Shown piece after piece: positions 12,001-18,000 of a stretch of 32,000 bases of DNA. Position 1 is the stretch's first letter, and each line of letters starts with the position of its first letter. Origin of the DNA: Geotalea daltonii FRC-32 (lineage in GTDB: Bacteria; Desulfobacterota; Desulfuromonadia; Geobacterales; Geobacteraceae); assembly GCF_000022265.1 (NCBI RefSeq), contig NC_011979.1, positions 4,170,001 to 4,202,000 on the forward strand, read 5' to 3'. Made by a program: the position numbers.

Positions 12001-15000
12001 TTCCCGGAGCAACTGCAAAATTGTTTGTGAACGGAGGACCGATGGTGCCGGTATATGTTCCGGCCATTACCGTTGAGATACCGGAAAATCCTTTCCAGGT
12101 CTTCCTGTCGATTCGGAAACCCATCTCGATCATGTCATTGCCATTGAGAATGCCATGACCGTAATTGTTATGGCAGGTATAGCACTCCATTTGCTCAATG
12201 TTGCGGTGGCGGTGATGAGCGCCGGCATCGGCGGGGGGATTGAAACCAAGGGTGTTACTGCCATACACCATGGTTGCCGGGCTGGTTGGGGGTATCCCGT
12301 GACAGGACGTACACTCACCTACCTGAGGGGCCTTGTAGCCTGTGCTGTGCTGATGGCATCCGTTACAATCTCTCCTGTTACTGCTCCCTTTTGGTCCATG
12401 TTCCGCATGTACAATATTGGATAACTTGCTGGCACTGTAATTGTGGTAGAGGGTCCTGTGATGGCATACCTCGCAGACATTGCGGGAGCCATCCTTATAA
12501 TCAGTCCGTTCGTCATTTCCGAAAACACCGGTTATCCCATTGGACGTTGTGGTATAGCGGTCGAAGATGACTCTTCTTTTACCTGTGGGAGTGGCAATAG
12601 AATAGTTGATGTACTTGATGTTCTTTCCCGCTTTTCTATTGTGACAGGTAGCACAGGTATACTCGCTACCCCAAGTTCCGTATTTGCCCGAAGCAGTGTT
12701 GGTACTGTTATGGATCAGTTTGAGAGCATCGGCACTTGCAGCCGTCGGGAAAAGATGATCTGCTATAAAAAAACCAATGATCAGTAAGGCCACGATCATT
12801 GTCATGACGCTTGCCTGGGTCTTGCTGCCTGTTGCAGCAACACTTCCCACTTTATCGTGTCTCATATGGTTCATCTCCCTTTACCCGCAAATCGCATCTG
12901 ACGCAGGGCTAAGCAAACCCCGTAAAAAAGCTGAATCTTTCGCAAATGCAGTTAGTTCACGACTCATTAAAAGCAGACCCTATTTCTAATGAGTTTATTA
13001 AGTCGTAATAATTACTTTGATTATATGTATAGCGAAATTAAACAGGTTCTTGTTAAGCAGGATTAATGCCAAAATTGAGTTTTTTTCATTTAGCATTGCT
13101 GACTGGAACCAGAGGCGCTTAGCTGTCGAATTTCTTTAGTTTTAGCGAATTGGGAAGTATGGGGGGAACCAAGGTAAATAGGTAATTTAACAGGTAGGAA
13201 AGGGAAACAGCCTGTTTGCAGGAAAGGATACCGTAACTATTGAAGGTCAAATTCTGCAGACAAAAGCCTGCTGCCGTAAGGAAAAGCATCCGTTTTGCAA
13301 GCTATGTTCTTCACTCAAAAAGCATGTGGCGCCAGCTTGGTACTGAACTGCTCCTGCAGATCCATGTGGACCTCCGGACATGTTATCTTCTGGCGGGATG
13401 GATTTGGAGCTACTTCAGTCTTCTATTTTTTTCTTCTCTCATAATATGACTCGCTCCATATCACCTTCGAAGGATCGAACTTCTTCATCTTCGCTGCATC
13501 GTCAACATCTTTCTCAAATTCGGATTTCGCGGCCCTGCGCTCCTCAGCCTTTTTCTTCGACTCCTCCCTGGGAGTCGGCCCCACCCTGTAGATAGAATCG
13601 ATAGTGAATTTTTTGGGGTCCTTTCGCCGCCTCTCAAGGCGTTTTTTCTCATTGAGCGTATAGGTATCGACGAAGGCCTCCAGTCGCGCGTCGATCTTGT
13701 ACATCTGCTCACCGGCATCATTGACGTGGCCGATAAGCGGCTCGGCCGGTTTTTCTATCACCTTCACCTCATAGAAAGCGAGGCAGCCAGCTTTGTTCAC
13801 CAGGTTCTTCACGTGCGTTTCAACCATCGTCTTGTGATCCGAATTCGCCTGGGTGGTTATGGGGAAGAGGTTCTTCGCGACCCCAGGACCGCCAACATTG
13901 TCGTTGAGCAGGTGTCCCTTGATATACGTCTCCCCTCCCGAGCGTCCCTTGCCGACCTTACCGACAGTCGGAAGGATGGAGAAAACTTCCGCCTGCTCCG
14001 AATCCTTCGGGCTTGTCCCCTGTCCGTGGTTAGGAGCAAGATACTCATATGTCATGTGGTAACCGGCAACGGAAGACTTGTTGCCGATCCTCACACTTCC
14101 AGTACGGTAAGTAATCACCGGCTTTACTTCGACATCCCCCACTTTGACAGGCTCGGCAGACCCCGCAATTGTGGTTTCAAATATATCCAGCAGTTCCGCG
14201 AGCAATGTCTCCAGCTTCGCAGGTGTGTCCTTCGGTTTCTCTTTGTTTTCCTGAGCCGCCTTTTGCAGAATGGCGTCGAGTTTCCCTGCTTCGTCGAGTT
14301 TCGGTTTCGCCCCCTTCATTGCAGTGGTCGCATCGGCACTCCCGGCATCCGCTTTCCACCGGTTGATCCTCGCCTGCACCTCCGCCGGGTCTTCACTTGC
14401 GACCCATGGGCGCGGTTTCGCCTCCGTTCTCTTGAAGAAGAATTCGTGCTTCGCCCCTTTCGGCGTCCTGAAAGAGCTTTTCCTTTTCCACCAACCTACT
14501 ATAGCGCCTCCTGTATCCTTGGCTGTTTTCCACAACTTCTTCGCCCCGGCAACGATCCACTCCACTACCTTCTCCAGCGCTTTGTCAATGGGGGCACGGA
14601 CCTTGTTCATGATGCCGGTGGTTATGTCGGTCACCTTGCCGAGACCGACCAAGCGGGCGAGAAAGCTGATCACCATAGTAAGCAGCCCTGCCATGGTCTG
14701 CTCGACCCGGTTTGCCGCAGCGGCAATCGCTCCCGATGCGATGGCGGCAATGGAATCGAGGAAGGATTTCGCCACCTGGGTGATCTGCTTGATCCGTTCG
14801 ATGAAGAACATGATCGTGTTGTAGATGGCGATGATTGCCTGGATGATCGCCCCTGCCGGGTTCAGGCTCGTGACGAGCTTGGTGATGGCACTCTCCACCA
14901 CCTTCACGATAACGAAATTGCGGATCTCCTCCAGAACAATCTCCTTCAGGTTGGAAAGCTGCTCCTTTATCTTCTCCCAGGCGGCCGCGGGGCCTTCCTT

Positions 15001-18000
15001 AACCAGCGTGACAACGATGTCGAAACCGGTTTCCATGGTCTTCACCACCGTCTCCCCGACCGCACGCACCAGCTTCTGCCGGATGTTCTGCCAGGTCAGT
15101 CCGAGAACGGAGAGAATGAACTTGATAATCTCCTTCATGTCGAACGACTGCGGAATGTAGATGGCGGCACCAGCGAGTGCCCCGGTAAGCCACTGGAGAA
15201 GGCTCGTCTTGAGGTGCGTACCTATGTTGGTCGAGAACTGCCTGAATCCCTGGATCCCCGCCTTGACAAGGTTCCCGACGAACCGGATCGGGTCCTTCAG
15301 AATCGTCCGGAACACCTCGATCCCTTTTTTCAGGTAGGGAATGGCAGCCGGAGCGACCACTTCGAAGATGATCTCCAACAGGTTCCAGACGGCATTCCCG
15401 GCCCAGGTCACGAACTTGCCGACGAAGTCGCCGAAAACCCCTGCAACCTTCACGAATGCACGGGGAACAAGGACAATGTCAGCCAACTCAAGTGACTGGA
15501 GGGTCTTCACGAAGAGCGAAGGGACCTGCCTGACGAAGCCGACCAGCGAGGCAACCGCCCCCTGAAACCAGGCCCAGGCGCGCGCCACGGCATTGGCCTT
15601 CTTCAAATTCTGCCACACCTCTTCCTGGCCGATCAGCTTCATGAAGCCGCCGATGAGCGTCTCAGCGTTTCGCGGCGCCGGTTCTCCGGTCACCGGGTCC
15701 TGCCCCAGTATCGCTTTCAGCAGGTCGTATCCCCGCGTCCCCTCGGCCAGCTTCGCCAACGGGCGCAGGATCGCCTCCCTGATGAGCCTCAGAATTCCTG
15801 TGATGAGCCCCTTGACAACGCCGACGATCCTGTCGATCGGCTCGGTGAATATCCGTTTCGCCCTGTCCCATGCACCTCCCAGGTCCGCCAGATCTCTCAT
15901 GCCGAGGGAGTCGATGAATGTCGTGACAGCCTGCTTTATTGCCGAGCCACTCATTCCCAGAGCGGAGATCTGCTGCTCGACCCACCTCCCGACCTTGTCG
16001 AAGATGCCGTGGTTGTCGAGCGCCTGGGTGATGAGGAAGCCTCCCGGCATGAACTCGATGACAGCGCGGAGGATGTTGGCCGGGCTTCGGTCGACTCTGC
16101 TCATGTTGATCGGGTTGACGCCGAGGATGATGGTGAACATTCTGAAGCCCGGTATGATCGCCGCCTTTTCGGCGATGTAGTTCAGCGGGCTTGCAAATCC
16201 GAACAGGCGCTGCACCATCGGCGGAGAGGTCTGCGTAATGCCTGGATCTCCGCTCCGCTGGAGAGTTCCTCCCTGCTGTACCGTGTGAGTGAGCTCGTGG
16301 GCGATCAGCTCTTTTCCATCGCCGCTCTCAGGCCTGAAACGGTCTTTGCCGAAGAATACGTGATTTCCGACGGTGAAGGCCTGCGCATTCAACTGCCTAT
16401 TTAGCTTCGCTGAGCTTTCACCGGTGTGAATCCGCACATTCGAAAAATCTGTACGGAACCTCGGCTCCATGAAGCTGCGCACGCCGTGGGGAAGAGGCTT
16501 TCCTCCCGGCATACTGCCGGAGATCCCTGCAGCAACGCTCGTCGCTACGCTTCCTTCTCCCTCTCCCTTGCGCTGGATCTTTTCTTTCCCTTCTTCCCTT
16601 TTCTTCTTCCTGAGAATTCCTGAATCGGCAAATCTCCGGAGATAGGGAGAGGTCATCCTTGAAATGCTGTCGCTGGGAATGGTCCTTACCGGAGAGAGCG
16701 GAAGCGGCATCCGGGCGACCTTTTTTGCGGTCATGTCGGCTTCCTGCTCGGTCCTGTCGTGGGGGGAGGAGATCTTGAGCGCAGAGGTCTGCACCGAAAA
16801 GGGCGCCGTGGCATGGGAGGTCTTCCGCTGCACCCCTTTAATCGAAGCGGCAGATTGATTCACTGCCGGCTTCGTTATCGTCTTCGCGTGCTTAGCCGTC
16901 TGCATCAGATAGCCCTGCCCTCCTTGTATAGTTCCCTGCGGATTCCCTCTTCCACATCGTCAAGAAGTATTGTTGTGCTGTCTTTACTTACCGCCTTCAG
17001 GGATGCGAAACGAACGACATTCATTATCGTCCCCCCCGTCAGCTCGTACTTCTCCGCTATCCTCTCCAGGTCCATCCTCTCCTCCAACTCCGCCTTGGGT
17101 GAAAAGGCATTCCTCCAGATCCGCAGGCGTTCGGACGGTTTCGGAATGGAGAAATGGATTATCGACTGGAAGCGTCTCACAAAAGCGTCATCCATATTGG
17201 TCCTGAGGTTGGAGGCCAGGATGACCACGCCGGCAAACTCCTCTATCCGCTGCAGAAGAAAACTTACCTCCTGGTTCGCATACCTGTCATGGGAATCGTC
17301 GACGCGCGTCCTCTTTCCGAAAAGAGCATCAGCCTCGTCGAAAAAGAGAATCCACCTCTTGTGCTCGGCCATATCGAAAACTTTCGCCATATTCTTTTCG
17401 GTCTCGCCGATGTACTTCGATACGATCATGCTCAGGTCGATTCGGTAAACATCGCGGCCACACCTTTTCCCCAGCAATGATGCAGATAGAGTCTTTCCGG
17501 TGCCTGGAGGGCCGTGAAAAAGCGTGATAAAACCCGGCTGGAGCTTCTTATTCATCTCCCACTCCTCCAGCAACCGCTGTCCGTGAAGAATCCAATTCCT
17601 GATCTCTTCAATCTGCTCCATCGTAGCAGGCGGTAGAATGAGATCGTCCCATTCGAGCTGCGTCTCGATCAGACGTGCCGGAAAATCCGAATTATAGGCG
17701 GGTTTCCGCTCTTCACCGGTTGTAAACCACTGAAGATGCTCGCGAGAGATGATGAGTGGGCCGCTCAGCACCGGCTCCACTGTGGAAGTGGGTGACAGGT
17801 GCAGGATGTTGTGACGTGCAAAAAAATGGTCGCCGTCGAAGAGCCTCACCACTTCAAATCGCATCCCGAGATCGTCCCCCGCAAGTATGAAGGCCGCTGT
17901 CTCCCCGGAAGGGATGAATCCTCCATGCGTGCTTCCGTGCAATCCCCCGAATTCGGTAAATCCACGCTCGGTAGTCTCGTTTTTGCTCCACAGGACGTCG

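Follow-up and report, generated by a model that had tools for sequence, protein, structure and literature searches.

A DUF4157 protein with a nuclease-like C-terminus as the terminal gene of a contractile injection system operon in Geotalea daltonii FRC-32

Background

The last gene of an extracellular contractile injection system (eCIS) operon in Geotalea daltonii FRC-32 raises the question of whether its product is a cargo or a part of the particle and, if it is a cargo, what it would do to the recipient. The window analysed here, i.e. the whole stretch of 32,000 nucleotides at positions 4,170,001 to 4,202,000 of contig NC_011979.1, had been read from its sequence as holding in this gene a candidate payload in which a DUF4157 module is joined to a nuclease-like C-terminus. 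We carried out a computational follow-up of that original prediction. The gene product, referred to below as the effector, is likely to be a DUF4157 (eCIS_core)-class cargo of the eCIS that is built as a polymorphic toxin with a nuclease warhead. In its constant chassis (aa ~1-795), an N-terminus that is basic, disordered and interrupted by a conserved short helix precedes the DUF4157 HExxH module, to which a helical body of ~570 aa is joined; a junction module comes next. For the exchangeable warhead, the sequence and structure models support, without proving, a His-Me-finger (beta-beta-alpha-Me, EssD/EsaD/Pne1-like) nuclease with a basic tail.

DUF4157 has been described as an eCIS core domain at the N-terminus of toxin fusions, in many cases with a "very long linker" in between (Geller et al. 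2021, PMC8213781), and has been used as the feature that predicts eCIS toxins most strongly (Danov et al. 2024, PMC11297309). The combination of DUF4157 with a variable C-terminal toxin, on which the original prediction relied, is indeed a reported eCIS architecture (PMC8213781, PMC11126660), and the payload reading agrees, by analogy, with published work on the lumen cargos Cgo1 and Cgo2 (PMC8894135) and on Tme (PMC11126660). In the eCIS-associated toxins (EATs) of PMC8213781 and PMC11297309 the intervening sequence is treated as a very long linker, whereas in the effector no other part is as well conserved, and a large subfamily is defined by it.

The effector gene and its operon

The open reading frame (ORF) and the eCIS genes upstream of it confirm that the gene is the last of the operon, on the minus strand, which had been left unstated (Table 1). 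The cluster is an Afp/PVC-type contractile injection system with the effector gene as its last member; upstream on the same strand, Pfam identifies genes for the CIS tube, VgrG-like (Phage_base_V / Phage_GPD), gp25 and Baseplate_J proteins, two unannotated proteins, CIS_TMP and AAA. A position inside or at the 3' end of an eCIS operon is also that of EAT genes. The predicted start of the gene on the ATPase stop codon was read in the sequence, one base (16905) being shared; the minus-strand junction is AAGGAGGGCAGGGCTATCTGATGCAG, and AAGGAGG is located 13 nt upstream of the effector ATG. This overlap would couple translation of the effector to that of the ATPase, which is probably, by analogy, the loader of the effector. 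The protein has a calculated mass of 127.3 kDa and an isoelectric point (pI) of 9.8. An identical gene call is present on a public 66-kb contig, an ortholog from a Geobacter sp. metagenome-assembled genome (MAG) has 78% identity over 98% of the query, and a Geotalea toluenoxydans relative (P0005) has 95% identity across the first ~690 aa.

Table 1. Position of the effector gene, its parts and the neighbouring operon genes in the window
Feature	Position	Strand	Residues	Basis or remark
Whole effector gene	13423..16905	-	1-1160	1160-aa ORF, ATG start, stop codon 13423-13425; ORF list and translation
TGATG overlap	16903..16907	-		AAA+ ATPase stop TGA and effector ATG share base 16905; read directly
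N-terminal region	16498..16905	-	1-136	Basic (pI 10.6), mostly disordered
N-terminal helix motif KISSPHDRTEQEADMTAKKVAR	16711..16776	-	44-65	Conserved, in otherwise disordered N-terminus
eCIS_core / DUF4157 domain	16267..16497	-	137-213	PF13699, E 1.8e-32
All-helical constant region	14521..16218	-	230-795	Amphipathic/hydrophobic, outside Pfam, tape-measure-like composition
Hydrophobic segment AGAIIQAIIAIYNTIMFFI	14800..14856	-	684-702	Kyte-Doolittle 19-residue window mean 1.94; near-invariant residues
Hydrophobic segment MAGLLTMVISFLARLVGLG	14638..14694	-	738-756	Kyte-Doolittle mean 1.84; near-invariant residues
Junction (pre-toxin) alpha/beta module, WWKRKSSFRTPKGAKHEFFF...	14161..14505	-	801-915	AlphaFold2 10-residue block mean pLDDT 81-94 at aa 811-910
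Nuclease-like domain	13741..14148	-	920-1055	PF13930 near-threshold, conservation, AlphaFold2, Foldseek
Beta-beta-alpha-Me core	13789-13923	-	995-1039	Within the nuclease-like domain
Lys/Glu-rich helical tail	13426..13710	-	1066-1160	Helices aa 1066-1093 and 1113-1138 (AlphaFold2)
C-terminal motif FDPSKVIWSESYYERRKK	13426-13485	-	1141-1160	Ends the tail; recurs in P0004 and P0124-P0128
AAA+ ATPase, Afp15/Pvc15/Alg15-like	16905..18308	-		PF00004, E 1.4e-27; directly upstream of effector
CIS_TMP gene	18248-20110	-		PF19268, E 2.1e-95
Two large eCIS genes	20126-23158 and 23089-25839	-		1010 and 916 aa; between Baseplate_J and CIS_TMP

A full-length AlphaFold2 (AF2) model was built on 96 homologs, with a mean predicted local distance difference test score (pLDDT) of 69 and a predicted template modelling score (pTM) of 0.36, at which the relative placement of the domains is unreliable. 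Residues 1-41 and 72-116 have pLDDT below 50 and are predicted to be disordered; a disordered N-terminal signal or loading region is likewise a feature of EATs, and aa 1-136 are a candidate loading sequence by analogy with the N-terminal domain of Cgo1 and Cgo2. Within this region the motif at aa 44-65 (SSPxDxxExEAD..A..V), in which S46, P48, D50, A52, E53, E55, A56 and A60 are at least 90% conserved (96 sequences) and for which AF2 predicts a helix at aa 51-65 (pLDDT 69-85), is a candidate for the element by which the ATPase or the tube initiator recognises the effector. The DUF4157 module that follows is complete, as had been claimed. Its HELTH (aa 203-207, window 16285-16299) lies inside AHELTHTVQQ, residues H203, E204, H207, Q210 and Q211 are invariant in the 96-sequence alignment, and the model is confident at aa 121-213 (pLDDT 84-94). 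A PF13699 domain with HExxH placed N-terminal to the remainder of the protein is the arrangement that defines EATs.

A nuclease-like domain at the C-terminus

A His-Me-finger nuclease is the best reading of the C-terminal domain; the evidence from sequence and modelling is convergent and individually weak, and supports this reading without proving it. The PF13930 (Endonuclea_NS_2) profile matches aa 980-1050 with E-values of 7.4e-6 to 1.4e-4, and all 18 aligned relatives match it as well (best 1.6e-8). The core, KGHLLNDNVGGPGVAKNLFPITTQANSDHKTMVETHV, corresponds to aa 996-1032; G997, H998, N1001, G1005, G1006, G1008, N1012, P1015, N1021 and E1029 are invariant in the 18-sequence alignment, in which the relatives are 22-86% identical to the query. 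In the full-length model, strands at aa 995-998 and 1013-1016 are followed by a helix at aa 1018-1039, and a model of the domain alone (pLDDT 68, pTM 0.63) gives the same pattern, in both cases with moderate confidence. H998 terminates the first predicted strand, and the helix carries N1021 and E1029 with a spacing of 8 residues, as for the metal-site Asn and Glu of Serratia nuclease (N119-E127). Two features by which His-Me fingers are recognised, the beta-beta-alpha-Me topology (in the models) and a conserved catalytic His with metal-binding Asn/Glu, were both found.

The top match of the domain-only model in the PDB by Foldseek is EsaD (8gun_A; E 0.032, probability 0.85, TM-score 0.35-0.37, 12% identity), followed by the nuclease-like domains of ENPP1/2/3 and by Sda1, all of the same fold class. 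With the independent full-length model, the top match in a viral library is an entomopoxvirus EssD-like protein (E 0.023, probability 1.0). When 1.84 billion representative proteins were searched exhaustively, 990 representative clusters related to the domain were found at E <= 1e-3; the nearest of these are mostly eCIS_core proteins too, with PF13930 at 20-27 bits, and one relative (P0176) reaches 27.5 bits. The C-terminal domain and these relatives form a distinct subfamily at the edge of PF13930.

The domain is flanked on one side by the junction module, which spans aa 803-915 in the full-length model. Of 122 homologs 26 have this module, and 17 of these 26 belong to the 27 with the nuclease domain. 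On the other side lies the tail, which is Lys/Glu-rich as described originally (28 K/R and 20 D/E in the last 95 residues). In several relatives with the nuclease module the terminal motif FDPSKVIWSESYYERRKK recurs, in variants such as FDPAKVKWAPSYYRRR and HDPNKVLWAPGHKKK, with extra sequence after the motif in some.

A constant chassis with exchangeable C-termini

The original prediction described the part between DUF4157 and the C-terminal domain as a helical region of ~650 aa with no recognised motif. It is helical and belongs to no Pfam or NCBIfam family, but it is not featureless; together with DUF4157 (aa ~120-795) it is conserved more than any other part of the protein and defines the family, rather than being a linker. 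In the 96-sequence alignment the identity to the query per 40-residue block is 0.57-0.80 over aa 121-760, falls to 0.46 in the block at aa 761-800 and is 0.05-0.17 beyond aa 800; the stretch from aa 143 to 783 contains dozens of invariant columns. Helices run continuously through aa 240-792 in the AF2 model, and the grand average of hydropathy of the region is +0.39. The search of the central region against Pfam returned noise alone (Gate, PT-TG and Baculo_PEP_C, all E >0.01), an NCBIfam search of the effector gave zero matches, and for the helical body Foldseek of the full-length model against the PDB found nothing informative. On the hydropathy scale only, Kyte-Doolittle segments of at least 1.6 occur in the middle region at aa 477-495, 684-702 and 738-756; from their sequence, the latter two are candidate membrane-inserting helices. 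An internal repeat was also observed in the body, at aa 253-286 (16048-16149) and aa 392-425 (15631-15732) on the minus strand (ILGvNPinm..vdRspanIL versus ILGqDPvtg..apRnaetLI); hhalign between the sub-alignments gives a probability of 69% and an E-value of 4.5e-5.

The chassis is widespread. A whole-protein search gave >2,580 homologous clusters at E <= 1e-10; the best 120 relatives cover 51-98% of the query (mostly 60-90%) at 49-95% identity (mostly 50-69%) and include Geobacter, cyanobacteria, Myxococcus, Sorangium, Methylocaldum and Chlorobi. In a scan of one genome per species the constant region is present in at least 555 genomes. The matches listed typically span residues ~40-800 at 45-60% identity, with record titles that include Desulfuromonadota, Alpha-, Beta- and Gammaproteobacteria, Cyanobacteria, Bacteroidota, Chlorobiota, Acidobacteriota, Gemmatimonadota, Myxococcota, Verrucomicrobiota, Planctomycetota, Actinomycetota and Eremiobacterota. 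A copy with 53% identity was also seen on a 5153-bp contig (L026, match 2333-4573) of a Nitrososphaera sp. MAG; the contig is binned to an ammonia-oxidising archaeon, and a binning error or a cross-domain transfer is possible. The G. toluenoxydans ortholog, P0005, has just 744 aa and continues past residue ~693 with unrelated Ser/Pro/Arg-rich sequence (aa ~690 corresponds to window ~14836); this frameshift-like divergence could reflect a pseudogene or a sequencing error in that genome.

What follows the chassis is variable. The nuclease domain of the effector occurs in 27 of 122 homologs, and beyond aa ~800 the Pfam families in homologs are Ntox15 (PF15604), PF15541, AHH (PF14412), PF18431 and PF13930. 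Since identity collapses after aa ~800 and other toxin domains occupy this place in relatives, the protein is a polymorphic toxin chassis, i.e. a constant N-terminal region that carries variable C-terminal toxins among close homologs. The GC content is 0.47-0.55 at the 3' end of the gene versus 0.57-0.64 in its body; the drop is insufficiently sharp, and is therefore no argument for a recent exchange of the module.

The chassis also travels with the ATPase. Of the 62 related loci with sufficient flank, 53 have a homolog of the latter no more than 3 kb from the effector gene; it immediately precedes that gene or, as in many loci of Bacteroidota and Chlorobiota, immediately follows it. The pair stays adjacent and the gene order is lineage-specific. 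A Geobacter MAG, Ferribacterium and two metagenome loci share with the window the order CIS_TMP, AAA, DUF4157 gene. The ATPase lies directly downstream of the DUF4157 gene in L022, L029, L031, L033, L040, L041, L049, L052, L053, L061, L069, L071, L075, L079 and L083, mostly from Bacteroidota or Chlorobiota with a few others. Two or three DUF4157 genes stand side by side in L035, L052, L023 and L051, which suggests arrays of alternative cargo genes. The supposed linker is thus a strongly conserved, unannotated domain of ~570 aa that accompanies DUF4157 and the ATPase in many phyla; it may serve as a tether, a lumen filler, a membrane translocator or a warhead inhibitor.

Comparison with characterised systems

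The closest characterised relatives are Tme, Cgo1/Cgo2 and Pne1, whose known features are combined in the effector. Tme (BN159_7576) is the tape-measure-related effector of the Streptomyces davawensis CIS and is composed of DUF4157, a region with transmembrane helices and tape-measure-like character, and a nuclease resembling EndA whose DNase/RNase activity requires Mg; on purification, Tme accompanies the spike/tube-initiator complex (Nagakubo et al. 2024, PMC11126660). The definition of Tme-like proteins in that study, an N-terminal DUF4157 with a C-terminal nuclease domain, applies to the effector, which shares with Tme (compared here by its published description) the long hydrophobic or helical region, a His-Me-finger nuclease (predicted in the effector) with a GH histidine and the status of largest ORF of the cluster, and no cognate immunity gene is described for Tme. 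The middle of Tme has predicted transmembrane helices and profile-level similarity to phage tape measures. However, Tme has 2247 aa and is ~70% disordered, whereas the 1160-aa effector is mostly ordered helices, and the nuclease of Tme was matched to EndA (DRGH/H-N-N motifs) while that of the effector resembles PF13930 (EssD/Pne1 type) and has KGH. The tme gene stands immediately upstream of baseplate genes, the position of a phage tape measure; the effector gene is not so placed, being last, after the ATPase, in a cluster with its own CIS_TMP gene.

In AlgoCIS, Cgo1 (54 kDa) and Cgo2 (134 kDa) fill a tube lumen of 3.6 x 90 nm and are released on firing, and for Cgo2 the lumen location and the release on contraction were established by cryo-electron tomography and mass spectrometry (Xu et al. 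2022, PMC8894135). The effector resembles both in having a disordered N-terminal domain, DUF4157 and a large C-terminal part and in belonging to an eCIS cluster with an AAA+ ATPase, and is close to Cgo2 in size (1228 aa and 134 kDa versus 1160 aa and 127.3 kDa). They differ in that no nuclease is reported for either, the C-terminal domain of Cgo1 being metalloprotease-like and that of Cgo2 unassigned; Cgo2 was compared by description only. According to a 2026 preprint, loading needs the disordered N-terminal domain and can do without DUF4157; the AAA+ protein Alg15 is put forward there as the mediator of loading, which would likely also unfold the cargo (bioRxiv 10.64898/2026.05.27.728243). 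In later work by the authors of the Tme study, another DUF4157 protein, Sle2, was shown to bind both the tube initiator and a cargo of tape-measure-like character (bioRxiv 10.1101/2025.11.06.686954).

For the warhead, the nearest precedent is Pne1 of the Pseudoalteromonas MACs (metamorphosis-associated contractile structures), a PF13930 nuclease delivered into eukaryotic cells that has a predicted nuclear localisation signal (NLS) and kills insect and macrophage cells (Rocchi et al., bioRxiv 10.1101/543298). Like the effector it has a basic NLS-like sequence and no immunity partner, and it was modelled on Spd1 and Sda1; unlike the effector it has 496 aa, lacks DUF4157 and the long helical body, and carries its NLS at the N-terminus. 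The predicted beta-beta-alpha-Me fold, the GH histidine and the placement as a C-terminal toxin module are shared with EssD/EsaD (PDB 8gun) and other PF13930 toxins. EsaD differs in its delivery by a type VII secretion system rather than an eCIS and in having an immunity protein, EsaG, where none was found here, and the similarity is remote (12% identity). Seen next to these proteins, the effector is a rather typical representative of an already known class of injected toxins, and the terminal gene of the Geobacter/Geotalea-type eCIS gains a specific identity as a putative nuclease-tipped DUF4157 effector.

Proposed mechanism

By homology or analogy with these systems, the effector would be translated in coupling with the AAA+ ATPase, which may recognise the disordered N-terminus and thread the chain into the tube lumen in an unfolded or extended state. 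There the effector would be tethered to the tube-initiator/spike complex by DUF4157, the helical body or both, and contraction of the sheath would expel it along with the tube contents. The hydrophobic helices may then enter the target membrane and help the C-terminus across, where the nuclease would degrade nucleic acid of the recipient with H998 as general base and N1021 as metal ligand, helped by N1012 and E1029. The original prediction had seen an obstacle in the size of the protein, put at 125 kDa, but this objection falls away, Cgo2 (134 kDa) and Tme (2247 aa) being loaded, presumably after the AAA+ ATPase has unfolded or extended them. The volume of the effector is ~154 nm3 against ~918 nm3 for an AlgoCIS-sized lumen (~17%). 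The constraint is the diameter of the lumen and not its volume, which suggests an unfolded or extended state of the cargo and not its exclusion.

A bolder proposal, which we put forward tentatively and hold to be less probable than not, concerns aa ~120-795 as a whole. These ~670 aa might be a single, horizontally spread delivery chassis that tethers to the tube-initiator/spike, lies extended in the lumen like a tape measure, inserts a hydrophobic hairpin (aa 684-756) after ejection, carries any fused toxin across the membrane and keeps the toxin inactive in the producer, such that no immunity gene is needed. If true, this would give a function to the still-elusive DUF4157 family and define a new, very widespread protein domain. 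Whatever the merit of this proposal, the function of DUF4157 and of the helical body is relevant to the engineering of eCIS cargo loading, and the naturally swappable C-terminus past residue ~800 is an obvious fusion point for heterologous cargo.

Weighing the alternatives

Several results weigh against a nuclease-bearing cargo. The PF13930 scores of 22.6 bits for the whole protein, 25.7 for the 275-aa C-terminus and 26.6 for a 176-aa segment lie below the cut-off of 27, even the highest-scoring segment formally missing membership by <1 bit; Foldseek gave weak matches (E 0.02-0.03, TM-score ~0.35) with models of moderate confidence (pLDDT 68-69); and PDB sequence searches with the full protein and with the 18-sequence C-terminal profile gave no nuclease. 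Neither in the window nor in three related loci was an immunity gene found downstream, an absence untypical of antibacterial nucleases. Most effectors are far less conserved than the constant region, and this could hint at a structural role. In addition, PHROG tail tape-measure profiles match the helical region (7.6e-11, 9.8e-9 and 1.7e-8, with similar results for homologs), yet the reversed sequence still matches phrog_1272 at 1.8e-7 (30 bits versus 41.5 for the native sequence), indicating a largely compositional similarity. As regards the C-terminus, the originally proposed His-Me finger is supported by the invariant residues, the beta-beta-alpha models, a profile score near the cut-off and EsaD/EssD-like structural matches; the position of the score below that cut-off, the weak E-values of the structural matches and the negative PDB sequence searches count against it.

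The sub-threshold score could be taken to mean that the C-terminal domain is a degenerate, non-catalytic nuclease fold with a DNA-binding or protein-interaction role, like that of ENPP proteins, and that toxicity comes from membrane insertion or from the HExxH peptidase. Several of the top Foldseek matches are inactive ENPP nuclease-like domains, and the toxicity of the DUF4157 cargo Cgo1 is independent of its HExxH motifs and unexplained (PMC8894135). Against this, the general-base and metal-site positions GH...N...N...E are invariant in 18 of 18 aligned relatives. The N1021-E1029 spacing also matches that of Serratia nuclease noted above, and a degenerate fold appears highly improbable. Only somewhat better placed, and still improbable, is a structural or assembly component, with DUF4157 and the helical region as an internal scaffold, plug or second tape measure and the C-terminal domain as an accessory. 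The extreme conservation across phyla, the PHROG matches, the status of DUF4157 as an eCIS core domain (PMC8213781) and the association of Tme and Sle2 with the spike/tube-initiator complex all suit such a role. However, a dedicated CIS_TMP gene exists in the cluster, AlgoCIS particles without Cgo1 and Cgo2 still assemble with empty tubes (PMC8894135), swappable toxin C-termini are typical of effectors, and the tape-measure matches partly survive sequence reversal. Shuffled controls (two global, two within 10-residue blocks) gave no PHROG tape-measure match, tblastn against 50,697 phage genomes found nothing, and tape-measure matches by Foldseek were non-significant, with probability <0.11 and very large root-mean-square deviation. 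Given the reversed control, the tblastn search and the Foldseek results, tape-measure homology of the body is not claimed, and only a tape-measure-like composition and periodicity are recorded.

The remaining alternatives accept the effector as a nuclease cargo and differ in the target. The cognate immunity gene that would be expected directly downstream of a polymorphic toxin was not found in the 548-bp gap after the gene, and in five related loci (L002-L006) the downstream genes are unconserved and no candidate immunity gene recurs. A nuclease directed at eukaryotes such as protists or invertebrates, with the basic tail serving nuclear targeting or DNA binding, would need none; Pne1 shares PF13930, has a predicted NLS and kills insect and macrophage cells, and basic clusters occur in the tail (RRRK at aa 1092, RRKK at aa 1157) and at aa 100 (KKKR). 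These clusters are, however, non-specific and fit DNA binding equally, the single strict K[KR]x[KR] match is located in the N-terminus, and target range is not readable from sequence. The two large genes between Baseplate_J and CIS_TMP, probably for baseplate or tail-fibre proteins that would set the target range, are without Pfam match. An anti-eukaryotic role is, on balance, rather unlikely. The system and its nuclease might also act on the producer population itself, through DNA fragmentation, release of extracellular DNA, regulated cell death or the biofilm matrix, the effector still being a CIS cargo. Tme, the closest characterised architecture, acts so (PMC11126660), neither the window nor L003 or L006 has an adjacent immunity gene, and the peptidoglycan-binding gene that comes next in two related loci would be in keeping with a connection to lysis or release. 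This is nevertheless unlikely, as the gene order is unlike that of tme clusters, with the effector after the ATPase and a separate CIS_TMP, and as immunity genes are frequently absent among eCIS toxins, including those shown to kill E. coli or yeast (PMC8213781). An injected polymorphic toxin with a nuclease warhead stays the preferred reading of the effector.

Other features of the window

Downstream of the effector gene lies an AT-rich gap of 548 bp, in which no ORF exceeds 71 aa, followed by cytochrome genes; no terminator-like site was found downstream of the effector. In two related loci, including the Geobacter MAG (L002 13480-14442), the gene that follows the effector encodes a PG_binding_1 protein. 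The window retains at 13324-13362 on the minus strand what appear to be the last ~15 codons of such a gene (MDLQEQFSTKLAPHAF*), with 81% identity to the L002 gene over 32 nt (blastn E 0.004); the evidence is weak, and from this residual match most of the gene has probably been deleted.

An ORF of 589 aa antisense to the effector gene (13726-15495, plus strand) was rejected as a by-product of the GC-rich coding strand, its translation being of low complexity and its extent wholly within the conserved gene. Directly downstream of the eCIS operon and on the same strand, two giant multihaem c-type cytochromes of 1788 and 1537 aa are encoded at 7508-12874 and 3133-7746 (both minus), with dozens of CxxCH motifs and PF09698 (GSu_C4xC__C2xCH); such cytochromes are typical of Geobacter-type extracellular electron transfer.

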